From Candidatus Bathyarchaeia archaeon (GTDB lineage: Archaea; Thermoproteota; Bathyarchaeia; 40CM-2-53-6): a stretch of 64,000 nt of DNA. Positions 43,456-60,926 of the stretch are shown in pieces. The stretch is taken from contig JBEKVV010000003.1 in NCBI GenBank assembly GCA_049513715.1, positions 256,001 through 320,000 of the forward strand, given 5' to 3'. The position numbers were made by a program, and so were the translations under genes. Each line of letters starts with the position of its first letter. Position 1 is the first letter of the stretch. The notes below the pieces were generated by a model. The model had not been told where the DNA came from. It searched no databases and saw only the letters and a program-made list of their open reading frames with translations.

Positions 43456-45111
43456 TTGATCGACCTCATCCAAACAATAGTCATAATTCTGATTCTGGGA
43501 ACGGCGATAGCTTTAGGGCGCCTTCTCGCACCATACGTCACAAGAGTCTTCGCGCGTGCACCAAGCCGCTTTGATAATGTATTGAACCCCCTCGAGAACT
43601 GGGTCTACAAACTCGGGGGGGTAAACCCAACCCATTCAATGGACTGGAAGGAATACTTCCTATCCTTGCTCTTCGTCAACGTTATTCAAATGGGGTTAGC
43701 CTTCCTAATTTTCGTTTTCCAAGACAGACTTCCCATGAATCCTCAGGGATTCACAGGCCTAACATGGGACCTCGCCTTCATGCAAGTTATCTCATTCGCA
43801 ACCAACACTAATCTCCAGCACTACAATGGCGAAACCACACTTTCATATCTAAGCCAAATGACCGCAGTTCAATTCCTGCAATTCGCCTCAGCCGCATCCG
43901 GTATCTGTGTTGCGGTAGCATTTGTGAGAGGTTTCAAGAACGGCGCCAAAGACTTAGGTAATTTCTATGTTGACTTCATAAGATCCCTAACGAGGGTTCT
44001 CTTCCCACTATGCTTTGTAGCGTCTCTGATCTTTGTTTGGCTCGGTGTGCCTCAAACTCTCAACGGATACGCGGTTGTGAAAACCTTCGAGGGCGCGACA
44101 CAAGTAATCTTGGTAGGTCCTGTCGCGTCCTTGGTCTCAATAATGCAGATTGGCACGAATGGGGGAGGATATTATGGAGCCAATTCCGCTTATCCATTCC
44201 AGAACCCAAACCCTGCGTCGGACGTCCTTCAAATCATCTTAATGTTGCTCATGCCTACTGTGATGTGCTTCGTCTATGGGGAAGTTCTTGGAAAGAGGAA
44301 AGAGAGCAGACCCATACTTTGGGGCTCATACGCGCTCTTCGTCATCGACCTGATAATTGCATTCATCCCCAACCCCACCCTAGGCCAGGGCATGGAGGTT
44401 CGGTTTGGGGGCTTCTTCTCAGCCTTTTGGACCGTTGTAACGACAGCGGTTACAACGGGTTCGGTCAATGCTTCGCTTTACGGGATGCATCCACTCGTCA
44501 TACTTTCAGGGTTCATGGGCATGTTGATCCAAGCTACACCGGGTGGAAAGGGTGTTGGCTTGATGTACATGGTCATGTACGTCGTGATCACTGTATTCAT
44601 CGTCGGACTCATGTCAGGAAGAACCCCTGAATATTTGGGAATGAAAATCAACGGACGAGACGTCACACTCGTAATGATTGCCTTCCTGATTCACCCAGTC
44701 ATCATCCTAATTCCCACCGTGGTGGCTTACGCAAGTGGAGCCGCAAACGCAATCGGCTTGGGAGGCGACTCACTCGGTTTCACGCAGGTTCTATACGAAT
44801 TTACATCCGCCGCCGCCAACAATGGTTCGAATTTTCTTGGTGCGACAGGGAATACGCCATTCTTCAACATATCAACGGCCCTGGTAATGTTCGCAGGTCG
44901 TTACGCTCCAATGGGTGTGTTGCTTGCGCTCGCAGGGTCGATGATCGGAAGGAAGAGACATGTCGAGATTGGGTTGAAAACCGATAGCATAACGTTCTCC
45001 ATTATCCTTGTTGGTAGTACATTGATTCTTGTGGTTCTGACGTTCTTCCCGTTCCTCGCACTCGGACCAATACTCTCCTACTTCCGAGGTTTCGTAAATG
45101 GGTTCGGTTAA
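43456..45111 (+). CDS. kdpA: K+-transporting ATPase subunit A
   Basis: TNTNLQHY, GTNGGG, TTGS, SAAANNGS. Confidence 0.95.
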   Translation: MIDLIQTIVIILILGTAIALGRLLAPYVTRVFARAPSRFDNVLNPLENWVYKLGGVNPTHSMDWKEYFLSLLFVNVIQMGLAFLIFVFQDRLPMNPQGFTGLTWDLAFMQVISFATNTNLQHYNGETTLSYLSQMTAVQFLQFASAASGICVAVAFVRGFKNGAKDLGNFYVDFIRSLTRVLFPLCFVASLIFVWLGVPQTLNGYAVVKTFEGATQVILVGPVASLVSIMQIGTNGGGYYGANSAYPFQNPNPASDVLQIILMLLMPTVMCFVYGEVLGKRKESRPILWGSYALFVIDLIIAFIPNPTLGQGMEVRFGGFFSAFWTVVTTAVTTGSVNASLYGMHPLVILSGFMGMLIQATPGGKGVGLMYMVMYVVITVFIVGLMSGRTPEYLGMKINGRDVTLVMIAFLIHPVIILIPTVVAYASGAANAIGLGGDSLGFTQVLYEFTSAAANNGSNFLGATGNTPFFNISTALVMFAGRYAPMGVLLALAGSMIGRKRHVEIGLKTDSITFSIILVGSTLILVVLTFFPFLALGPILSYFRGFVNGFG

Positions 45112-45172
45112 TTCTGAGAGGTGAATCGAGACGTCAACCAACGATCAACGGCCTAGTCTGCGGGCAGGGACT

Positions 45173-47266
45173 ATGTCCAGCAAGACCTTACTCGACTCAA
45201 TAGTGAGGCTGAACCCCGCATCATTGATTGCGAACCCCGTTATGTTCATCGTTGAAATCACATTCTTCATCGTGGCAGCGATGGCCGTCTACCCGCAAGG
45301 ATTTCTGCCCGTAGCGAGTCCAAGTGAACGGATTTTCTACGTTGAAGTTGCAGCCATTTTGCTGATTACAGTTTGGTTCAGCACACTCTCGGATTCACTC
45401 GCCGAAACTCAAGCAAGGAACACTGCGAACAGTCTTAGGAAGCTCGAAACGGAAACGATGGCCAAGAAAATCGTGGCGGAGGGTAGAGATCAAGGAGAAA
45501 GATCAACGGTCCTTACTCCCTCTACTCAGTTGCGACGAGGGGATATGATCCTGCTGGAGAAGGGAGACCTGATTCCCATAGATGCAGAGGTAACTGAGGG
45601 GATAGCAATGGTGGATGAATCTCTTCTCACAGGTGAATCGGTTCCCGTCAGGAAGGCCTCTAGCGATCCACTCATCGGAGGTTCAAAACTCATCAGCGAC
45701 ACATTAACTGCAAGAGTCACAGTGAACCCTGAAGACAGTTACATCAACCAAATGATCCGGTTGGTTGAATCAGCAAAGAGACCGAAGACTCCGAACGAAC
45801 AAGCAGTGGTAGTAGTTCTGATTGGACTTACGGCCATTTTCACAATAATAATTTTCGCACTTCTTGGAATGTCGGTCGTGCTCAGTCTCGGCGCCGACCT
45901 CTCAGTCCTAATTGCACTATACGTTTGCCTTCTTCCAACCACGATTGGCGCGCTGCTTCCAGCAATCGGCCTCTCGGGAATGTCTAGGTTGTATGGAAGG
46001 AAAATTGTTGCAAAGTCAGGCAGGGCAATTGAGACTGCCGGCGACACGGACACGATCCTTCTCGACAAGACCGGCACGATAACGGTCGGGAGCAGGCAAG
46101 CAATCGGTTTCATACCCTTTGGTGCTCATTCTGAGCAGGAAGTCGGCGAGGCAGCGTTCCTGTCTTCTTGGCATGATGACACTCCAGAAGGGCGAAGCAT
46201 AATCAGGTTAGCCTACACTGGCCGCCTGATACCCAAGGAATTGAACGACCTAGCACTTTCAGAATCCTACGAGTTCTCAGCCACGACCAGAACGAGCGGC
46301 GTGAAATTCACCAGTGGTACTGGTTTCATGCTACCGAAAGGTGGCGAGGAGCGAGCTCGATTTAGGCGAAAATTCACGGCCTCCTTGAGCAGCTTGGAAG
46401 GGGGCCAGGTTGAAATCTTGAAAGGAGCTCCAGACGCGATAAAGGCACTTGCGGCCTCGACACCTCCTGACTACGACACTGTCATTAACAAAATCTCCGG
46501 CGAAGGCGATAGTCCCGTAGCGATCTGCAAGAACCGTGAAATAATCGGCATGATTCGTTTAAGAGACGTTTTGAAGACGGGTATCAAAGAAAAAATCCAG
46601 GCTGTCAAAGCGATGGGTATCCGCCCGGTGATGATAACTGGGGACCAACCACTCACTGCAAAAAGCATCGCATCTGAAGTTGGTATAGACGAGTACGTAC
46701 CGCAAGCAAAGCCTGAGGACAAGCATGGAATTGTTCTCCGCGAGCAAGCGAACATGAGGATTGTTGCCATGATAGGCGATGGGACGAACGATGCCCCTGC
46801 GTTAGCCGTGGCTGATGTAGGCCTCGCCATGAACTCTGGAACGCAAGCGGCGAAGGAGGCTGCCAACATGGTTGACCTTGAATCTAACCCTGCAAAGGTC
46901 ATTGAAGTCGTGATGCTTGGGAAACAGCTACTCATGACACGAGGAGCAGTTACCACATTTAGTATTGCAAATGATGTTGCGAAATATTTCGCAATAGTCC
47001 CGGTCATGTTTGCAGTTGTACCCGAGCTGCAAGCCTTGAACATCCTCGGGCTGGGGTTGCATAGCGCTGTTCTGTCTGCGTTGATTTTCAACGCAATCAT
47101 AATTCCGCTGCTGATCCCTTTGGCCATGAAAGGCGTCTCATTCAAGCCCTCAGACACAATGACGCTGTTTCTGAAGAATACGATGATCTACGGTGTCGGA
47201 GGAGTGATAGTGCCGTTTGTAGGAATCAAGTTGATAGACATCCTTCTACGGGCGATTCATGTTTAG
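45173..47266 (+). CDS. kdpB: K+-transporting ATPase subunit B
   Basis: TGES, LPTTIG, DKTGT, GDGTNDAPAL, ANDVAKYF. Confidence 0.96.
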   Translation: MSSKTLLDSIVRLNPASLIANPVMFIVEITFFIVAAMAVYPQGFLPVASPSERIFYVEVAAILLITVWFSTLSDSLAETQARNTANSLRKLETETMAKKIVAEGRDQGERSTVLTPSTQLRRGDMILLEKGDLIPIDAEVTEGIAMVDESLLTGESVPVRKASSDPLIGGSKLISDTLTARVTVNPEDSYINQMIRLVESAKRPKTPNEQAVVVVLIGLTAIFTIIIFALLGMSVVLSLGADLSVLIALYVCLLPTTIGALLPAIGLSGMSRLYGRKIVAKSGRAIETAGDTDTILLDKTGTITVGSRQAIGFIPFGAHSEQEVGEAAFLSSWHDDTPEGRSIIRLAYTGRLIPKELNDLALSESYEFSATTRTSGVKFTSGTGFMLPKGGEERARFRRKFTASLSSLEGGQVEILKGAPDAIKALAASTPPDYDTVINKISGEGDSPVAICKNREIIGMIRLRDVLKTGIKEKIQAVKAMGIRPVMITGDQPLTAKSIASEVGIDEYVPQAKPEDKHGIVLREQANMRIVAMIGDGTNDAPALAVADVGLAMNSGTQAAKEAANMVDLESNPAKVIEVVMLGKQLLMTRGAVTTFSIANDVAKYFAIVPVMFAVVPELQALNILGLGLHSAVLSALIFNAIIIPLLIPLAMKGVSFKPSDTMTLFLKNTMIYGVGGVIVPFVGIKLIDILLRAIHV

Positions 47267-47278
47267 GAGATTGCTAAT

Positions 47279-47722
47279 ATGAACAAGCATGGTTATGGTG
47301 CCGCCGTCAGACTGGCAATTATCTCATTAGCATTGTGTGGCCTAGTGTTTCCCCTGGTCGTTACAGGGTTTGCGCAACTATTTCTCCCGAATCAAGCAAA
47401 CGGGGGACTTATCACATTCCACGGCCGTTTCGTGGGTTCCTATTTGATTGCACAGAACTTCAACTCCCCGATGCTCTTCCACCCAAGAAACCAAACATAC
47501 TCCGCTTCAGGCGTGGACCCGGACATTACCCTCCAAGACGCCTATTCTCAGATTCCGAGGATACAAGCTACGACTGGAATTCCTCCGGATGCGCTGAAAC
47601 AGATAGTTGATGAGAACGTCGAGCGAACTTTATGGATCGCTGGCGAGCCGTACGTCAACGTACTCAAACTCAACCTGGTACTGATCGAAAGATACCCGGC
47701 AATCTACCAATCGTTCAGCTGA
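47279..47722 (+). CDS. kdpC: K+-transporting ATPase subunit C (short form)
   Basis: QANG, SASGVDPDI, GEPYVNVLKLN. Confidence 0.93.
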   Translation: MNKHGYGAAVRLAIISLALCGLVFPLVVTGFAQLFLPNQANGGLITFHGRFVGSYLIAQNFNSPMLFHPRNQTYSASGVDPDITLQDAYSQIPRIQATTGIPPDALKQIVDENVERTLWIAGEPYVNVLKLNLVLIERYPAIYQSFS

Positions 47723-51310: not shown

Positions 51311-52150
51311 CTACGATAGTTTGCTTTTCAGCGAGGCGACGAATTCGTCGGGCGTCAACGCGATCGGCATTTGAAGCCCCTGTTTTCTCAAGTCGCATGA
51401 TAATCTGGTCGCAAGTGGGGGTCTCATGCGAACCCGTTCCATCAGCTCCTCGTCGCTGAATAGGTCTCGGGTTGGAAGGTCCCTGAGAATCTGCCCGTGA
51501 TCCACCAGAATAACCCGATTCGCATATTCAGCGACCAATTTCATGTCGTGAGTAATCATTATGACAGTTAAACCAGTTCGATTCAGGTCGGCGATAAGGC
51601 CAGTCAGATACCTCGAATTCCCGTAGTCCTGGCCTGTTGTCGGCTCATCCAGAAGCAGAACGCTAGGCCGCGAGACCAAAACAGTAGCCGCAGCCAATCT
51701 ACGTCTTTGGCCTCGACTGAGCGCTTGGGGATGTACGTCCTTATACATGGCCAAGTGAACGGTCTCCAAAGCCTCTGTGGCAATTGCGTTCACCTTCTCC
51801 TCAGAAACCCCCATGTTTCTGGGACCGAAAGCCACCTCATTCCAGACACTTCGCGTGAACAACTGATGATCGGGATTCTGTAGCACAAAACCAATCCTTG
51901 ACCCAATCTCACTCAACTTGGCTTCCCGCGTGTCTACTCCATCGACGAGAATTCTTCCTCTAGCAGGTTTGTACAACCCAACGATCAGAGACGCAAGAGT
52001 GCTCTTTCCAGAACCATTTTGCCCAATTAGCCCGACAAATTCCCCGCGCTTGATTTCAGCGTCGGCGCTTCGGATTGAGTACTCCTCGTTTCCCGGGTAC
52101 CTGTACCACACGTCCTCCATCTTGACAACAACGTCAGTCACTTTGGCCAC
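51311..52150 (-). CDS. ECF ATPase
   Basis: GQNGSGKS, QNPDHQ, LSRGQ, DEPTTGQD. Confidence 0.92.
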   Translation of the reverse strand: MAKVTDVVVKMEDVWYRYPGNEEYSIRSADAEIKRGEFVGLIGQNGSGKSTLASLIVGLYKPARGRILVDGVDTREAKLSEIGSRIGFVLQNPDHQLFTRSVWNEVAFGPRNMGVSEEKVNAIATEALETVHLAMYKDVHPQALSRGQRRRLAAATVLVSRPSVLLLDEPTTGQDYGNSRYLTGLIADLNRTGLTVIMITHDMKLVAEYANRVILVDHGQILRDLPTRDLFSDEELMERVRMRPPLATRLSCDLRKQGLQMPIALTPDEFVASLKSKLS

Positions 52151-53054
52151 TCACCTTGAGTTTAGGATCAGGTTGTCGTCGCACTAGACCCTGAACAAGC
52201 GTTCTGATTTCATCAAATGTGATGGCCGAGACTGGTTCTTCATTTCGGCCGCGAAGTGAGGTCAGTGATTTTGATATGAGCGCGGCTTCTGGGATTTCAA
52301 TTCCAATCGAGCTTAGATAATCCGTGTGGTCCCTCAGAAGCTCCCGTGGTGGCTTGTCGAGAACAATCTGGCCTTCGTGCATGACGACGACCCTGTCAGG
52401 CATAAGAATGTCCATGATCCGCTCCAAACGGTGTTCAATGAGAAGTATGGTCATCTTCTTCTCATGGCGCAGTCTCTGAATCGTGGAAAGAACTTCGCTA
52501 GTGCCAGCCAAGTCCAAGTCTGAAGTTGGCTCGTCCAGTATCAATATACTCGGTGCAACCGCCAGGTTCGACGCGATTGCCACTCTCTGCTTCTGGCCAC
52601 CAGAAAGTGCGAAGACGAAACGCTCACTGAGGTCACTGATTTCTATATTTGTCAATATCTTGCCGACTCGTTCCCTCATATCCTCCTTGGGAACCCCTCG
52701 GTTCTCAAGCCCGAAGGCCACCTCATCTACTACCCTGAGGCAGAACAGTTGATTGTCGGGATTCTGGAAAACCAGCCCTGCGTGTTCCGACAGCTTTGCA
52801 ACCGAATTCTCCCTCGTGTCATAACCGTTCAAAAGAACCCGGCCTTTCATCTCGCCTGAAATGTTGTGCGGAATCAAACCGAGCAGGGCCAAGGCCAGCG
52901 TTGACTTCCCGCAGCCGCTCGGTCCCACCATCACAACAAACTCCCCTTCCGTCACGGTGAGATTTACGTTCTTGAGGATGCTCGGCGGAGTGTCGCCTTC
53001 TTTCAGCGGCGGATACGAGAAAGAAAGGTCTTGCACAACTACAGACATAAACAA
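52134..53054 (-). CDS. ECF ATPase
   Basis: GPSGCGKS, QNPDNQ, LSGGQKQR. Confidence 0.92.
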   Translation of the reverse strand: MFMSVVVQDLSFSYPPLKEGDTPPSILKNVNLTVTEGEFVVMVGPSGCGKSTLALALLGLIPHNISGEMKGRVLLNGYDTRENSVAKLSEHAGLVFQNPDNQLFCLRVVDEVAFGLENRGVPKEDMRERVGKILTNIEISDLSERFVFALSGGQKQRVAIASNLAVAPSILILDEPTSDLDLAGTSEVLSTIQRLRHEKKMTILLIEHRLERIMDILMPDRVVVMHEGQIVLDKPPRELLRDHTDYLSSIGIEIPEAALISKSLTSLRGRNEEPVSAITFDEIRTLVQGLVRRQPDPKLKVSGQSD

Positions 53055-53184
53055 CTCCCTCCTTTCCGTTCAAAGTCAGCGCCGTGTATTTCCATAATCT
53101 ACAGCACTTCAGCTTCCATCAATCGATCTTATGCTGCTCATCGCTAGAGTAGCTTTCTGATGAGCACAGCCTCCATGGATTTGG

Positions 53185-54015
53185 CTACGAAGGGGTATGA
53201 TACGTGAACCCGACGCCTGCGAGAAAGCCGTAGGAGAACCTGAGGTACGTTAATGCCGCAGCTGTGACCAGGATGGCTCCGACTATGATCCAGTCGGTTC
53301 TCTTCATCGAAAGGTCTCTGAAAGCAGTTCTTTTGGTTGTGCCGAATGCCTTTATCTGAATCGCGTTCCCCATTTCTGTGGACCTTCGCAGTGCGCCTAT
53401 CATCAATGGTTCCAGTATGAGTTTCATCTTGTACAGGTTGCGAGCAAACCGTCCACTCTTGTGGCCCCTGAGGTCTATGGCGTTGCTGATGTTGATATAT
53501 TCCTCCAAGAACAAAGGCACGAGCCTAACGGTAACCGTAACCCCAAACGCTAGGACCGAAGGGAGGCCGATCTTGGACAGGCTGAGCAGCATTTCACTCG
53601 GGTCAGTTGTTGAAACCAAGACGACCGAGATAAGGAACGCCAAAGTTGTCTTGAACGAAATGACCAACCCCCACAACACTCCCTCCAAGTAGACCGGCAA
53701 ACCGAATATCGTGCCCAGCAGGACCGTGTTTGGAGGACCACCACCAGTCCTTAATCCAAACGTACCCAACACCGTGAGTCCCAAAATCGTTGAGAAACAA
53801 AACCCAGCCATGTACCATCGAGTGATTTTCGGCACGCGGGCTAGAACGATGAGGATTATCGCGAAAATGTGCAGTGCCACGTAGACCCTGATATCATTAA
53901 CAAGAACAAATGCGATGTACATTATGGAAGCTATCAGCAGTATCTTGACTCTAGGGTCCAAAGCATGCAGAAAGGTCTTCTTGTCGAGGCTCCAAAAGGT
54001 CAGTGGGGACGCCAT
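53185..54015 (-). CDS. ECF T component
   Basis: LHALDPRVK, AIDLRG, AIQIKAF. Confidence 0.9.
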   Translation of the reverse strand: MASPLTFWSLDKKTFLHALDPRVKILLIASIMYIAFVLVNDIRVYVALHIFAIILIVLARVPKITRWYMAGFCFSTILGLTVLGTFGLRTGGGPPNTVLLGTIFGLPVYLEGVLWGLVISFKTTLAFLISVVLVSTTDPSEMLLSLSKIGLPSVLAFGVTVTVRLVPLFLEEYINISNAIDLRGHKSGRFARNLYKMKLILEPLMIGALRRSTEMGNAIQIKAFGTTKRTAFRDLSMKRTDWIIVGAILVTAAALTYLRFSYGFLAGVGFTYHTPS

Positions 54016-54125: not shown

Positions 54126-54707
54126 TCACTTGCCTATCAGTGGTTTGATTGCTTTTCCAGTTCGGAAACCCAGCAGACCCATCACCGGTCCAGCGATGAC
54201 GAACCCCGCTCCCGCAATCGCTAGGACATCTGCCGGAAGTACAGTGGCGAAAAATACTGGCATAATGATGCCGAATCCTATCGCGAAAGCAGCAATTCCG
54301 TCAACCAGACCTCCAATGATAACGCTCCACCAGTTGTCCATGTAGTGGCCGGAAGAGAACCAAACAGCGATTATCGCGATTTCCGCTATGACTCCCTGGC
54401 CTATGTTCTGCATAGCCCAGATTGGGCTACCGCCGAAGAACAGCAGATTGACCAGCAGCTGGATGAGTGTGAAAATGATCACGGTGAAAGGCTTCCGAAC
54501 GATCGCGGCGGTCACACAGAACAGGAAACTGAACTGCATTATGAACCACCACTCACCAATCGGCGTAGGAAGCGGCAGCATAATTCCAATCATGTTGATT
54601 ACCCTGCTTATGGCAGCAATAACAGCGATAACAATTATGTCTGGTATCGATAACTGCCAGAGCTTCCTCGAACCTCTCTGCGTTTGCATCATAGAACGTC
54701 GAGCCAT
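54126..54707 (-). CDS. ECF S component (YkoE-like, substrate unknown)
   Basis: Multi-TM, DIIVIAVIAA, IVRKPF, QGVIAE; first gene of ECF operon. Confidence 0.75.
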   Translation of the reverse strand: MARRSMMQTQRGSRKLWQLSIPDIIVIAVIAAISRVINMIGIMLPLPTPIGEWWFIMQFSFLFCVTAAIVRKPFTVIIFTLIQLLVNLLFFGGSPIWAMQNIGQGVIAEIAIIAVWFSSGHYMDNWWSVIIGGLVDGIAAFAIGFGIIMPVFFATVLPADVLAIAGAGFVIAGPVMGLLGFRTGKAIKPLIGK

Positions 54708-54923: not shown

Positions 54924-55391
54924 GTGTTACAGAAAATGGAATTAGAGTGGCCGGAAATCAAAAACAAAGTCACCGCGTCGCTACTCAAGGAAGAAGAACC
55001 CGAGCTATGCGAGGCTCTCTGGAGGAAGATCGAGACTCCTGCGAAACTATTCTGCCGGCACACCTTATCGACTGGTTATGTGTTCATGGGTGAACAGCGT
55101 CCCCCGAGACATCCTGTCCAAGCTGGCACACAGGCCGTGCCTTTGGGCAGGAAGGAATGGTTGCCATCTAGGATTGAGCCTGGGAGCGTAATCTATTCCG
55201 GTGTCGGAGGATACGGCGGAATTACCGTCTACTACGGCCCGTCCACTACGCCTCTGCGAGAATCAGGCTCGCCGGTCGCGAAAGTCGATAGGAATCAGTT
55301 GGACGATCTGGTGAGAGGCGGGGAGTACGTTTTCAATGCTCAGTACATGACGCATCGGCCGTCAATTATGATTGTTAGAAGGGTGAAATAG
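54924..55391 (+). CDS. McbB/cucumopine synthase-like N-terminal (cyclophilin-like) domain as separate protein
   Basis: ELEWPE..VTASL...PELCEALW, HTLSTG, YYGP, PVAKV, IVRR align to recalled McbB N-half. Confidence 0.78.
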   Translation: MLQKMELEWPEIKNKVTASLLKEEEPELCEALWRKIETPAKLFCRHTLSTGYVFMGEQRPPRHPVQAGTQAVPLGRKEWLPSRIEPGSVIYSGVGGYGGITVYYGPSTTPLRESGSPVAKVDRNQLDDLVRGGEYVFNAQYMTHRPSIMIVRRVK

Positions 55392-55392
55392 G

Positions 55393-55980
55393 ATGGCAAA
55401 AGATTGGCACGAGGTCAAGGATCAACTCGAAGCTGAGTTGGATAGGATTTGGTGGGACGAACCAGAAGAGGTTACGATGTCCAAACTGGGTATCTTCCCC
55501 AGTGGAGCGGGCGTCTACAACCAAGTGTTGGGGAACCTCTTCTTCCAACTCACCGAGACGCAAGCAATGGGCTGGGCGACTGCGGAACCCATTGTGAAGC
55601 AGCTAATTGCGAATCCGACATTCACGCTGGAGCAGTGCGAGATTGTGTGGAAGTACCTTACTGTCAATATGACTAAGCTCCTTGGAGGTATGGACCCGCC
55701 GAGGTGTCCTGCTCCTTGGCTCAACCTTCCAAAGCTGCTGCAGTTTTCAAATGACATTGTCAATTCCTTCGAGACCGTCAAAACCAAGGAAGAGTTGTCC
55801 GATCTCTTGTGGAGCTGGTTCAACTACGTGAACTGTGTAAATCGCTGGTTCGCGTTGGCGTTTCCGTGGCACCTAGGAAAAATGTTGCCGCAGGTGACGC
55901 CCAAGGACGTCGAACAACTGGCCAGATTATCGGGGATGAAGGTTCAGAAGGAGGCGCTACAAGTTGTGGAACAAAGCTAG
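55393..55980 (+). CDS. Cucumopine synthase/McbB C-terminal helical domain as separate protein
   Basis: ELDRIWWDEPEE...G..PSGAGVYNQ and YVNCVNRW...FPWHLG align to recalled McbB C-half. Confidence 0.82.
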   Translation: MAKDWHEVKDQLEAELDRIWWDEPEEVTMSKLGIFPSGAGVYNQVLGNLFFQLTETQAMGWATAEPIVKQLIANPTFTLEQCEIVWKYLTVNMTKLLGGMDPPRCPAPWLNLPKLLQFSNDIVNSFETVKTKEELSDLLWSWFNYVNCVNRWFALAFPWHLGKMLPQVTPKDVEQLARLSGMKVQKEALQVVEQS

Positions 55981-57085
55981 AGGATCCATCAAGCTCCTAA
56001 TGACGCCTGGGCCCCTCGAGGTTTCTCCGCGGGTCCTTGAAGCAATGTCGAGGCCCCAAAGTTACTCATACTACAAGAACTTTCTCGACTTATTCGCGGA
56101 AACGACGGAGAAGATGAAGAAGATCTTTCAAACGAAGAATGACGTGCTCTTAATGCAAGGAGAGGGAGTCCTTGGCCTGGAGGCCGCAGTCGCCAACACC
56201 ATTGACCCAGGCGACAAGGTACTCGTTTTGGACTCCGGACCTTTCGGCAAATGGTTTGGAGAGTACGTTGTGAACTTCGGAGGACAAGTCTCTGAGATGT
56301 CAGTGCAATACAACGACGCGATTGACCCCGGCCGGCTCAAAGAGAAACTGGAGACGGAGAAGGACGTCAAAGCAATGACAGTTGTCCACTGTGAAACACC
56401 CGCCGGCATCATGAACCCAATTCGAGAACTCTGCCCGCTCGCGAAAAAGAAAGGAATCCTAACAATAGTTGACGCCGTCGCATCAGTTGGTGGCGTAGAT
56501 GTGAGGCCAGACGAGTGGGGAATCGACATTTGCATTACTGGTTCCCAGAAGGCTATTTCCTCAACACCTGGTCTGACCATGGTATCAATGAGCCCCGAAG
56601 CATGGGAAGCCGTGGACAAGAAGAAGAAACCCATCAAGAACTCCTACCTGAGCCTAACTGATTGGAGAGATGCGTGGATAAAGCACGGGCATTTTCCTTA
56701 CACGCCCTTCATCTCTGAAATCTGTGGGCTTGCAGAAGCCGAAGATGAACTGTTGGAGGAGGGACTCCAGAACTCATTTGCAAGGCATCATGCAGCTGCG
56801 GAAGCGTGCAGAAAAGGCGTGGATAGGCTTGGGATGAAGCTTTGGCCGAGAAGACGGGAAATCTGCGCGGACACAGTAACTGCCATTCAGATCCCTGACG
56901 GTTACACTGACATGGGCATCATCAATACTATGGTCGAGAAATACGGGGTTCTCATCAGCGGCGGACCAGGATTAGAGAAACCATTGCTAAGAATCGGCCA
57001 CATGGGATATGCAGCGACAGTCATGAATGTCACCACAACAATGTGGGCTCTAGAACAAACTCTGAAGGAACTCAAGAAAAACTAG
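55964..57085 (+). CDS. Class V aminotransferase, pyridoxamine-pyruvate aminotransferase-like
   Basis: QGEGVLGLEAA, YNDAIDP, GSQK, DWRDAW..FPYTP.ISEI. Confidence 0.8.
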   Translation: MWNKARGSIKLLMTPGPLEVSPRVLEAMSRPQSYSYYKNFLDLFAETTEKMKKIFQTKNDVLLMQGEGVLGLEAAVANTIDPGDKVLVLDSGPFGKWFGEYVVNFGGQVSEMSVQYNDAIDPGRLKEKLETEKDVKAMTVVHCETPAGIMNPIRELCPLAKKKGILTIVDAVASVGGVDVRPDEWGIDICITGSQKAISSTPGLTMVSMSPEAWEAVDKKKKPIKNSYLSLTDWRDAWIKHGHFPYTPFISEICGLAEAEDELLEEGLQNSFARHHAAAEACRKGVDRLGMKLWPRRREICADTVTAIQIPDGYTDMGIINTMVEKYGVLISGGPGLEKPLLRIGHMGYAATVMNVTTTMWALEQTLKELKKN

Positions 57086-57291: not shown

Positions 57292-57765
57292 TTGACTGGC
57301 AAAGATCGATTGGACAAGATCGACCGCAGCTTACTGAATAGTCTCCAACGAGACAATCGGATTCCGCTGGATCGTCTGGCTCGCAAACTCAGGATACCCA
57401 AATCCACGATTCACTATCGGATACGTCGCCTCGAAAAGGCGGGAATCATCAAAGGATACGGTGCCAGGCTCGACGCAGCCCAACTGGGACACGACTATCT
57501 TGGAATAGTCGCAGTTCGTGTAACATCTGGACCACAGGGTGCCGAACGAATCGGAAAGCGATTGGCTGAGGTTAACGGGGCATGGGCAGTTTACTATGTC
57601 TTGGGAGACATAGACTTCATAGTGGTAATCAGGGCACATGACCGGGATGACTACATGAGGAAGTTGAACGAAATCTTCAACGTTGGAGACATTGAACGAA
57701 CAACTACTCACATCGTCGCGCGAGTATTCAAAGACCCAATACTCGATCCAACAGTGCCCTTATAG
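57292..57765 (+). CDS. Lrp/AsnC transcriptional regulator
   Basis: LDKIDRSLL..LQ, STIHYRIRRLEKAGIIKGY, GDIDF. Confidence 0.93.
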   Translation: MTGKDRLDKIDRSLLNSLQRDNRIPLDRLARKLRIPKSTIHYRIRRLEKAGIIKGYGARLDAAQLGHDYLGIVAVRVTSGPQGAERIGKRLAEVNGAWAVYYVLGDIDFIVVIRAHDRDDYMRKLNEIFNVGDIERTTTHIVARVFKDPILDPTVPL

Positions 57766-58114: not shown

Positions 58115-59464
58115 ATGAAAGGAGCAGTTACTACGGCACCGTTGGTAGGTAACGTCGCCACTGGGGTCACACAGATATCTCTGCCAGTTGAGGAATTGCC
58201 GCGCAAATGGTACAATATCATCCCAGACTTACCCAAGGCGTTGCCTCCGCCGAAAGAACCCGAAACCGGGCCCTCGCGGGCTGAGTTTCTGGGCAGAACA
58301 ATGATCCATGAATGCCTGCGGCAAGAAGCCTCCAATGATCGATGGATTCCGATTCCAGAAGGAGTCAGAGACCTCTTAATTCAAGCCGGGCGACCTCGAC
58401 CACTCTACAGGGCCCGAAGGCTTGAGAATAAGTTAGGGCTGAAGAAGGTGAGGCTCTACTACAAGCGTGAAGACCTTTCCCCGACTGGTTCTCACAAAGT
58501 CAACACGGCCTTGCCTCAAGCATACTACGCCGCTAAAGAAGGAAAGAGCGTTCTCGTAACGGAGACGGGGGCTGGGCAATGGGGGACCGCATTGTCCTAC
58601 GCCGCGTCACTGATGGGGCTGTCGACGGTCGTATTCTGGGTGAGGGCCGTTCACGATTGGAAGACAGGGAGACGCACTCTAATGAGACTGTACGGTGCGA
58701 AGGTCTATGCCTCACCGAGTGACCAGACATCTTTCGGAAAGAAGCTTCTCTCAAAGGACCCCAAACATCCCGGGTCGCTGGGAATAGCGGTCTCAGAGGG
58801 CCTTGAGTACACGGAAGGTTCGCCTGACCGAGTCTACTGCTTGGGTTCGGTTCTGAATCACGTTCTGATTCATCAATCCATCATCGGTCTTGAGGTCATC
58901 AAGCAATTCGAACAGGTGGATGACTCACCCGACCTTGTCGTTGGTTGCCTCGGTGGCGGCTCGAACTTTGGCGGCATCGCGCTGCCTTTCATGGGCGAAG
59001 TTCTTGCCAAGAAGAGAAAATGCGAATTCCTCGCCTCCCAGTCAGAGGCGGCGCCGAACCTTCTGAAGGGAGAGTACAGGTATGATTTCGGTGACACTGC
59101 TGGCCACACGCCCCTTATGATGATGTACACTCTAGGCCACGAGGCGGTGATGCAGCCTATTCGGTCGGATGGCTTGCGTTACCATGCGGCGGCTCCTATC
59201 ATCAGCGCGCTGAGGGCGCAGGGCCTGCTTCGGGCAGTTGCATACCCCGCCGACGAGGTCGCAGTCTTTACGGCGGCAAGACTGTTCCTTGAAAGTGAAG
59301 GTTGGCTCATCGCAGGAGAATCCGCACACGCCGTCAGAGCCGCAATCGATGAAGCTAAACGAGCTGAGTCAAAGGGCGAAGAGAAATGCATACTGATCAA
59401 CATCAGCGGACACGGCTTCCTTGATATCGACGCATACAGCTCTGTACTGCATCTGGACGGCTAA
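58115..59464 (+). CDS. trpB2: Second, divergent TrpB2
   Basis: GSHKVNTA, ETGAGQWG, GSVLNHV, GGGSNF, DGLRYH. Confidence 0.92.
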   Translation: MKGAVTTAPLVGNVATGVTQISLPVEELPRKWYNIIPDLPKALPPPKEPETGPSRAEFLGRTMIHECLRQEASNDRWIPIPEGVRDLLIQAGRPRPLYRARRLENKLGLKKVRLYYKREDLSPTGSHKVNTALPQAYYAAKEGKSVLVTETGAGQWGTALSYAASLMGLSTVVFWVRAVHDWKTGRRTLMRLYGAKVYASPSDQTSFGKKLLSKDPKHPGSLGIAVSEGLEYTEGSPDRVYCLGSVLNHVLIHQSIIGLEVIKQFEQVDDSPDLVVGCLGGGSNFGGIALPFMGEVLAKKRKCEFLASQSEAAPNLLKGEYRYDFGDTAGHTPLMMMYTLGHEAVMQPIRSDGLRYHAAAPIISALRAQGLLRAVAYPADEVAVFTAARLFLESEGWLIAGESAHAVRAAIDEAKRAESKGEEKCILINISGHGFLDIDAYSSVLHLDG

Positions 59465-59840: not shown

Positions 59841-60926
59841 ATGGCGGGGGAGCTAGTTTTCATAGGCCTGGGCCTCCACGACGAAAAAGGCCTCTCAATC
59901 CGCGGACAAGAAGAGGCCAAATCCTGCGAGTTCCTATTCGCTGAATTTTACACCGGAGTAATGCCGGGGTTGAGCATGGATAGCTTGGTGCGCTTGGTCG
60001 GTAGGCAGGTTCAGCTTCTTTCACGCAAGGAAGTTGAAGAAAGACCTGAACAAACCATTCTTGCGAAAAGCAAGAACAGCAAAGTTGGGTTCTTCGTCCC
60101 AGGCGACCCCATGGTAGCGACGACACATGTTGACCTCCGCATTAGAGCCCAGAAAGCAGGGATCAGGACGCGAATCATCCACGCCGCCTCTGTAGCTTCA
60201 GCGGCGGCAGGAGTGTCAGGGCTACAATCCTACAAATTCGGCAGAACCGTAACCATACCGGTCTCATCGCAAGGGCAACTTCCCGAAAGCATCATCACGA
60301 ACATTAAGACCAATTCTGCAGCAGGCCTGCATACTCTCGTACTCCTGGAAATCGACGTTGAGAATAATCGGCACATCACTATCCCAGAAGCCTTGAAACT
60401 GGTTTCTAACCCGGACAGAACGGGCGGTGCAGTTGGAGCCCAGACATTGATTGTGGGAATCGCACGCATAGAATCCCCTGACATGGTGGTGAGGGCAGGA
60501 ACCGTCAGCGACCTTATGAAGGAGGATTTCGGCAAGCCACCTTACGTCCTAATTATTCCCGCTCGGTTGCATTTTGTTGAGGCCGAAGCCTTAGAATTGT
60601 TCTGCGGCGCACCAAGAGCACCGGTGAACCCACCCATGACTGAACCCAATGAGGATCCGGGGCAGCGGGCGCGCACATACATTTCAAACTTTGAGAAGGC
60701 TCTCCATACCTCAAACGTAATGGTGGAAAAGAACCGCATCGACGGTGCAGCCATCACGAAGGTGACAGACGCAATTCACCGCTACCTCGAAGACGCACGT
60801 TACTATCTCGAAAACAATAGACCCACAACTTCCTTAGCGTCAATCGCATATGCTGAAGGCCTACTTGATGCGCTGATCTTTTTGGGTCTAGCGAAGCCAG
60901 ATCAGCCATCGCGAAGTTCTTCGTGA
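59841..60926 (+). CDS. dph5: Diphthine synthase fused to DUF357
   Basis: FIGLGL, GDPMVATTH, YKFGRTVT, LHTL; C-terminal YLEDARYY...YAEGLLDA. Confidence 0.9.
   Translation: MAGELVFIGLGLHDEKGLSIRGQEEAKSCEFLFAEFYTGVMPGLSMDSLVRLVGRQVQLLSRKEVEERPEQTILAKSKNSKVGFFVPGDPMVATTHVDLRIRAQKAGIRTRIIHAASVASAAAGVSGLQSYKFGRTVTIPVSSQGQLPESIITNIKTNSAAGLHTLVLLEIDVENNRHITIPEALKLVSNPDRTGGAVGAQTLIVGIARIESPDMVVRAGTVSDLMKEDFGKPPYVLIIPARLHFVEAEALELFCGAPRAPVNPPMTEPNEDPGQRARTYISNFEKALHTSNVMVEKNRIDGAAITKVTDAIHRYLEDARYYLENNRPTTSLASIAYAEGLLDALIFLGLAKPDQPSRSSS

Follow-up and report, generated by a model that had tools for sequence, protein, structure and literature searches.

A two-gene relative of the McbB-type Pictet-Spenglerases in a Bathyarchaeia archaeon, and its possible role in the opening of cyclic amino-acid adducts

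The closest described relatives of the gene pair reported here are the bacterial-type Pictet-Spenglerases, namely McbB (PDB 3X27), KslB/AsKslB (9NS6, 9UWA) and Fcs1, with which it has both domains and their folds in common. The characterised members of this fold all make rings. In the cited passages on KslB, an H-x-x-(V/S)-S/T-G loop binds the amino-acid carboxylate (PMC12012969), Phe46, Ile50 and Phe89 form a ring-binding cage (PMC12012969, PMC12547825), and Tyr92/Asn93 contact the catalytic loop across the dimer. KslB Ile50 and AsKslB Ile59 are also known to line the aromatic-ring pocket (PMC12547825). One glutamate is indispensable: activity is abolished in KslB E274Q (PMC12012969), in AsKslB E276L (PMC12547825) and by all 19 substitutions of this residue in Fcs1 (PMC10372676).

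The same two domains are found in the synthases of cucumopine and mikimopine and in their paralogs on Ri/At plasmids, which are annotated as DUF3830 or hypothetical proteins. Cucumopine and mikimopine are described as Pictet-Spengler products of histidine and ketoglutarate (PMC12536604), and opine catabolic genes are said to usually adjoin the T region (PMC8087989). In Kong 2024, 12 archaeal PF18631 proteins are counted, and its network was drawn from sequences of 200-500 aa, a range that would drop most stand-alone bundles. A literature search by title and opening of the abstract gave no sign of a two-subunit or ring-opening McbB-fold enzyme among the papers listed, and Hooykaas 2022 may already describe the plasmid paralogs; the reaction direction and the opine link proposed below would be new.

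The window is the whole stretch of 64,000 nucleotides that was analysed. Its gene content and nearest relatives also point to an archaeal host, most likely one of the Bathyarchaeia. An earlier note on it had proposed that an McbB-like enzyme is divided here between two genes, with the inter-domain linker gone, and two intact open reading frames were indeed found (Table 1). The barrel ORF corresponds to residues 21-160 of the McbB chain (E 3.8e-4) and the bundle ORF to residues 185-327 (E 1.5e-6), and about 15 linker residues are left uncovered. With family profiles, the matches to McbB improve to 2e-14 for the barrel and 1e-14 for the bundle, and KslB and AsKslB are also recovered. The junction reads TAG-G-ATG, as had been noted, and the GGTGA of the Shine-Dalgarno-like motif before it would pair with the 3' end of the 16S rRNA of the host genome. 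Unlike McbB and KslB, to which its identity is about 20-30%, the pair consists of two chains instead of one and carries a lid insertion of 10 residues.

Table 1. Features at and around the gene pair, in window coordinates
Feature	Position	Strand	Remark
ECF T component (CbiQ) and two ABC ATPases	51311-54015	-	from ORF/Pfam scan
ECF transporter S-component-like gene	54126-54707	-	divergent from the pair; weak PF09605 match, E 0.011
Barrel-half gene	54924-55391	+	GTG start, 155 aa, cyclophilin-like/DUF3830-type fold
Thr109 codon ACG of the barrel	55248-55250	+	column of McbB Glu97 / KslB Glu274; a Glu codon would take two base changes
RBS-like AGGGTGA	55380-55386	+	6 nt before the bundle ATG
Bundle-half gene	55393-55980	+	195 aa, PF18631 Cucumopine_C
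Glu55 of the bundle	55555-55557	+	aligns with KslB Ile50 / AsKslB Ile59
Lid insertion, bundle residues 99-109	55687-55719	+	at the place of KslB Tyr92/Asn93
Class V aminotransferase, pyridoxamine-pyruvate-aminotransferase-like	55964-57085	+	17-nt overlap with the bundle gene
Lrp/AsnC regulator	57292-57765	+	from Pfam; downstream neighbour
TrpB2-like PLP enzyme	58115-59464	+	second copy of the subtype in the genome

The stretch is present in a single contig in each of three DNA runs with zero differences (these are assembled contigs, and the runs are possibly the source of this DNA), and according to database records the two proteins occur on 30 and 44 contigs. No second copy of the pair was found in the host genome, and no RNA data set with the locus is listed. 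In a scan of GTDB, 69 loci were obtained. Both halves are present in 63, all of them as two ORFs with the barrel before the bundle; in five others a single half is found where the contig stops, and the last has no profile match. The frame offsets of the junctions (37/19/8 for 64 loci, this one included) and their stop codons cover all three possibilities of each, which rules out a frameshift or readthrough. The sign of an artefact named by the earlier note, namely close homologs that are all fused and reads that betray an indel, is therefore not what these loci and contigs look like, and the two-gene state is virtually certain to be natural.

In searches beyond these loci, 242 relatives of the bundle were found among 382 candidates (170-205 aa among the 120 listed) and 43 relatives of the barrel among 60 candidates (85-167 aa). 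The full pair was found in none of 60 relatives, and its distribution is patchy. Only two fused close relatives turned up, P0332 and P0230, of which P0332 was the one match among 8000 long candidates scored, which is weak evidence of rarity; a wider search gave fused proteins in 17 of the best 150 clusters. A bundle tree of 52 chosen rows, the one tree in which mikimopine synthase was placed, has a close clade (100/100) that includes both fused members and has this pair deep within it. The barrel tree was built after removal of near-duplicate loci and of six rows that were fragmentary or misaligned. A single origin of all fused rows was rejected (p-AU 9e-53), as was the exclusion of P0332 and P0230 from the close clade (p 0.007), both on trees with five long branches and no mixture model.

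The architecture has thus switched several times. Since both fusion orders exist, a two-gene ancestor is favoured, on trees without a secure root, and the two-gene state explains the opposite domain orders of McbB and KslB. Thus the earlier note was right to call the split natural, but its ‘fission’ of an McbB-like gene finds no support, the fused members being nested in the two-gene clade. By its gene order, its lid motif DPPxCPAPW and its place in the bundle tree (100/100), the pair belongs to this clade. Judged from the alignments, the split and the insertion are traits of the whole clade, and among the three only the loss of the glutamate is special to this copy. Other arrangements were also seen: a barrel-bundle-bundle-barrel set in a Nitrososphaerota genome, with Asp for Glu in one barrel (L020 1979-3999); two barrels and three bundles near hutH in Pseudoflavonifractor (L095 5765-11784); seven bundle-profile matches in Chelatococcus asaccharovorans (G062); and, in a genome of the same genus, a lone DUF3830-like barrel after an ABC transporter, with no bundle gene within 2.2 kb (L072 1492-1956).

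The suggestion that the halves form a heteromeric enzyme gains from the consistency of the two-gene loci and from a model of both chains, the multimer check that had been proposed. The two-plus-two complex of barrel and bundle was scored at 0.87 against 0.03 for the best control, and of 157 solved complexes 116 attain the mark applied to this score, as do 2 of 215 mismatches; the score may owe something to likeness with the solved McbB and KslB structures. At least 93% of contacts recur between runs, with a partner pLDDT of at least 87. The predicted interface takes in barrel residues 45-52 and 106-111 and bundle residues 92-110, including residues 98-101, 104-105 and 109-110 at the lid; Glu55 is not listed in it. 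From the model, the two halves very probably form a heteromer. McbB and KslB are of the single-chain homodimer type, whereas this pair is two ORFs and a predicted two-plus-two assembly. It is thus not a Pictet-Spenglerase as defined, having two chains and no glutamate, though it is built like one.

The predicted structure of the barrel (AlphaFold, pLDDT 86) has McbB as its best match (Z 19.0, rmsd 2.0 over 135 residues). The lone DUF3830/cyclophilin-like barrels PDB 3KOP and TM1367 share the fold (Z 16.4 and 11.8); unlike them, this barrel is accompanied by a bundle gene and gave no match in a Pfam scan of its ORF, DUF3830 included. As in KslB, the carboxylate loop and the YG-x-TE loop are in register. 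The former is kept as H46-T-L-S-T-G51 (residues 46-51) and aligns with HAVVSG of KslB. In the latter, YYGPSTTPL aligns without gaps with KYGPLTEYL of McbB, and the family profile puts YGPTTETL of KslB, with Glu274, in the same column. The catalytic glutamate is thus absent, as had been claimed from McbB Glu97, and Thr109 stands in its place. Of 104 close barrels, a partly redundant set of 39 database proteins plus 65 ORFs from the loci, 103 have the glutamate, as do 170 of 186 in the wider set. The split relatives keep it, so that the split and the missing glutamate, which the note had tied together, are independent traits. Glu113 of the LRESG motif was considered as a shifted catalytic residue and rejected on the alignment, for its column is variable and non-acidic (Ala 43, Val 30 and Asn 9 of 104). 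A second Glu-less sub-branch lies within the clade, with Lys, Gln and Val at column 109 (P0239, P0283, P0289).

Further positions bear on the substrate. The equivalents of KslB Arg256/Lys264 are absent, with Ile90 and Gly99 here; Arg and Lys are present in the pRi2659 proteins. Since these counterparts are lacking in the clade, ketoglutarate is an unlikely substrate. The position that we take to be McbB His87 is Gly in the barrel. Opening this position in McbB is said, from the 2015 work of Mori, to widen the aldehyde range.

The bundle matches Pfam PF18631 Cucumopine_C above the cut-off (E 4.2e-16), and its model (pLDDT 89) matches McbB in Foldseek (E 3.7e-5, rmsd 1.9). Its features in the ESM Atlas gave low-count DUF6589 matches only, which were taken as chance. 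By alignment and not from coordinates, bundle Phe51, Glu55 and Leu96 correspond to Phe46, Ile50 and Phe89 of the KslB cage, and the Phe is the same in both. Position 55 is Asp in 186 of 189 close relatives, and Glu occurs only in this copy, its variant P0169 and P0004. The apparent insertion in the second subunit, another point of the earlier note, proved to be real and clade-wide: about 10 residues follow Gly98 that McbB and KslB do not have, the motif DPPxCPAPW is found in 167 of 189 rows, and Pro106 and Trp109 are in all 189. From the model, it is predicted to be a lid over the active site.

Besides Glu109 to Thr in the barrel, the pocket of this copy has Asp55 to Glu, Trp62 to Ala and His92 to Asn in the bundle. 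These bundle changes are common to P0004, which is 82% identical, shares a clade with this copy (100/100) and is known from its bundle alone. A scan of metagenomes for the Glu55 motif returned eight stretches, two of them copies of this locus (L075, L079) and six without the two genes, and the barrel partner of P0004 was not found among them. Conserved columns are broken at 3 of 28 positions in the barrel and 5 of 53 in the bundle, which puts this copy in the upper fifth of both distributions.

At the locus itself, the coupled aminotransferase has NCBIfam NF046070 as its best family (358.6 bits, under the cut-off of 600) and 2z9u as its best PDB match (E 1.5e-72). Its Glu67 aligns gaplessly with Glu67 of the 2z9u chain, where alanine-glyoxylate aminotransferase has Ser. 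We take 2z9u to be pyridoxamine-pyruvate transaminase and its Glu68 to be the phosphate-site residue. Such a neighbour was found at this locus only and at none of the 69 others. On the other side, the predicted structure of the S-component-like protein resembles ECF S components of the PF09819 type (TM 0.75), and none was found with this query in 60 relatives. A scan for sigma-70-type promoters stayed at chance level, and this consensus does not fit archaea. More aminotransferases with the same phosphate-site Glu were seen (G000:C4:71470-80352, L087-L089), one of them again divergent from an ECF module, and in relatives such genes lie near aldehyde oxidoreductases and molybdenum enzymes; a B6-catabolic family in the genus is possible.

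Across the family, the neighbours are importers (NhaC-like, YuiF-like, PotABCD-like and amino-acid ABC, the YuiF and PotD labels being assigned by likeness), Lrp/GntR regulators and catabolic enzymes. At 11 of the 69 loci an Lrp gene is adjacent. Among 24 bacterial loci, six have hut or formimino genes in their flanks (L034, L036, L039, L053, L055, L063) and span Synergistota, Alphaproteobacteria and Bacillota; the other 18 have no hut gene in the examined flank, which was shorter than 10 kb in four cases. In Devosia (L036), the pair is downstream of a complete hut operon and an ABC importer, and in Bauldia it is near hutH/U/F. Of the 24 bacterial carrier genomes, among which kin are not independent, 22 encode urocanase, compared with 5 of 14 controls and none of 10 archaeal carriers; no hut genes were found in the flanks of the archaeal loci. 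The present host has hutH/U/I and FtcD, but on a different contig from the pair.

A similar picture is seen around the opine plasmids, whose proteins form a different clade with about 25% identity to the bundle, without the lid insertion and with other pocket residues. In pRi1724 and Sodalis pHS1, the paralogs are two genes in barrel-bundle order. That of pRi1724 lies to the right of mikimopine synthase, before importer and oxoprolinase genes, and that of pHS1 lies with hutH, an importer and an oxoprolinase; a distant split pair with hutH is also found in Chelatococcus. With this adjacent split pair, which lies immediately beyond the T-DNA of pRi1724, mikimopine synthase shares 54%/40% identity and forms a group (99/96; L081 11635-14519). 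Its open frame begins about 20 codons ahead of the annotated start.

In pRi2659 and pAtAG67 (L100), two fused McbB-fold paralogs sit inside a hutH/C/U/I/G/F cluster with an oxoprolinase (L099 21234-22196 and L082 12672-13619 in pRi2659), where the barrel-bundle paralog is divergent beside the bundle-barrel gene. One bundle-barrel paralog of this cluster has 92% identity with the cucumopine synthase of the T-DNA. The pRi2659 gene at L082 12672-13619 was considered as the cucumopine synthase itself and found to be the catabolic-region paralog, the T-DNA gene being a third copy. The same two-gene set with hutC is present in Chelatococcus (L093). A preprint describes pAtAg67 as octopine/cucumopine-catabolic (bioRxiv 2023.06.20.545721). 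At the 69 close loci, by contrast, no oxoprolinase partners were found. The simplest reading of this gene context is that McbB-fold proteins open the opine ring in the bacterium. For the two-gene family, a catabolic role on cyclic amino-acid/aldehyde adducts is probable, and the uptake and breakdown context of the pair differs in this from the biosynthetic one of McbB and KslB.

It is tentatively proposed, at somewhat less than an even chance, that the pair is a two-subunit enzyme that opens a cyclic amino-acid/aldehyde adduct. The two halves would assemble two plus two and run the Pictet-Spengler reaction backwards on an adduct imported by the adjacent ECF transporter. In the family, the carboxylate of the adduct would be held in the H-x-x-S-T-G loop and Glu109 would protonate the nitrogen of the ring; an imine would form as the C-C bond that joins the imidazole (or indole) opens, and water would then free the amino acid and the aldehyde. 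Such ring opening probably runs uphill unless a further step pulls it, and in bacteria HutH may do so by removing the histidine. In this copy, the pocket would be re-tuned by its four changes. Aromatic amino acids give Pictet-Spengler adducts with pyridoxal, and adduct formation is a known chemical sink of vitamin B6. Pyridoxal would be the foremost candidate for the aldehyde here, and its own 3-hydroxyl could do the proton transfer in place of Glu109. The coupled aminotransferase would turn the freed pyridoxal into pyridoxamine, which is unable to re-cyclise, and the importer, the ring opener and the pyridoxal-removing enzyme would make up a salvage route, at this one locus only. As the partner aldehyde, pyridoxal is nevertheless a rather unlikely choice, drawn from a single locus.

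The two-gene loci, the complex model, the hut and opine contexts and the small number of broken conserved columns count toward ring opening. Against it stand the need for the glutamate in homologs, the lack of an archaeal hut link, the aminotransferase of a single locus and the upper-fifth column breakage, which could also come from relaxed selection. Since loss of the glutamate inactivates KslB, AsKslB and Fcs1, it is doubtful that this copy carries out ordinary Pictet-Spengler catalysis, unless the acid comes from elsewhere. It is rather unlikely, all the same, that this copy is dead or nearly so, serving as a binding or buffering protein or being a recently disabled member of an active family. 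Such an end would agree with the loss of activity on every change tested at this Glu, with the sole Glu-less barrel among the close ones and with the absence of the complete pair from the 60 relatives. Both ORFs are nevertheless intact and coupled to neighbours, and Thr109 is kept in a barrel variant (P0168) that is about 93% identical, with differences counted by eye. The bundle changes, moreover, gather at pocket positions and recur in P0004, and the separate Glu-less sub-branch speaks the same way. From the sequences, the balance tips slightly towards a catalytically active copy.

The fold might instead do other imine chemistry, such as amine-to-aldehyde conversion or imine hydrolysis, and Pictet-Spengler chemistry in neither direction. 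The missing glutamate, the lack of the ketoglutarate-binding Arg256/Lys264 in the clade and the neighbouring aminotransferase would fit this, yet the clade overall retains the glutamate and the carboxylate loop, and its clearest contexts are of histidine catabolism, which fits the histidine-based chemistry of the opine synthases; we consider it quite unlikely. Less plausible again is that the pair runs forward and condenses histidine or tryptophan with an aldehyde, so as to scavenge the aldehyde or make a small alkaloid. All characterised members are synthases, the archaeal members have no hut neighbours and the extra TrpB2 is 2 kb away; but the family keeps company with genes of uptake, regulation and catabolism, neither tailoring nor export genes were seen at this locus, and this copy has lost its catalytic Glu. 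There is a negligible chance that a single fused gene was made to look split, or was given its Thr codon, by an error of assembly or sequencing, for although P0230 and P0332 are fused and the evidence is of contigs and not raw reads, the 63 split loci with their varied junctions, the absent linker and the identical contigs all speak against it.

In its widest form, the ring-opening proposal makes the two-subunit McbB-fold proteins widespread retro-Pictet-Spenglerases, which would be the missing ring-opening step of cucumopine/mikimopine catabolism, the source of the T-DNA opine synthases and a histidine recovery route for gut, soil and sediment microbes, with the Glu-less copy as a B6 damage-repair enzyme, its glutamate dropped because the pyridoxal-amino-acid adduct on which it works brings the acid itself. 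Taken whole, this is improbable; its family-level part alone, without B6 repair, is reasonably likely. If true, openers of tetrahydro-imidazopyridine or beta-carboline rings would account for the consumption of cucumopine and mikimopine and for the way in which histidine- and tryptophan-aldehyde adducts are dealt with by microbes of gut and soil, and if the pyridoxal adduct is the substrate, a repair route for that sink would be at hand. Among cultured strains, those of Blautia, Pseudoflavonifractor and Chelatococcus encode small, soluble proteins of the clade.

Elsewhere in the window, a diphthine-synthase-like ORF at 59841-60926 (361 aa) runs about 100 aa beyond the matched part in most relatives. 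Its tail presumably resembles DUF357. Three ORFs at 43456-47722 read like what we take to be KdpA, KdpB and KdpC.
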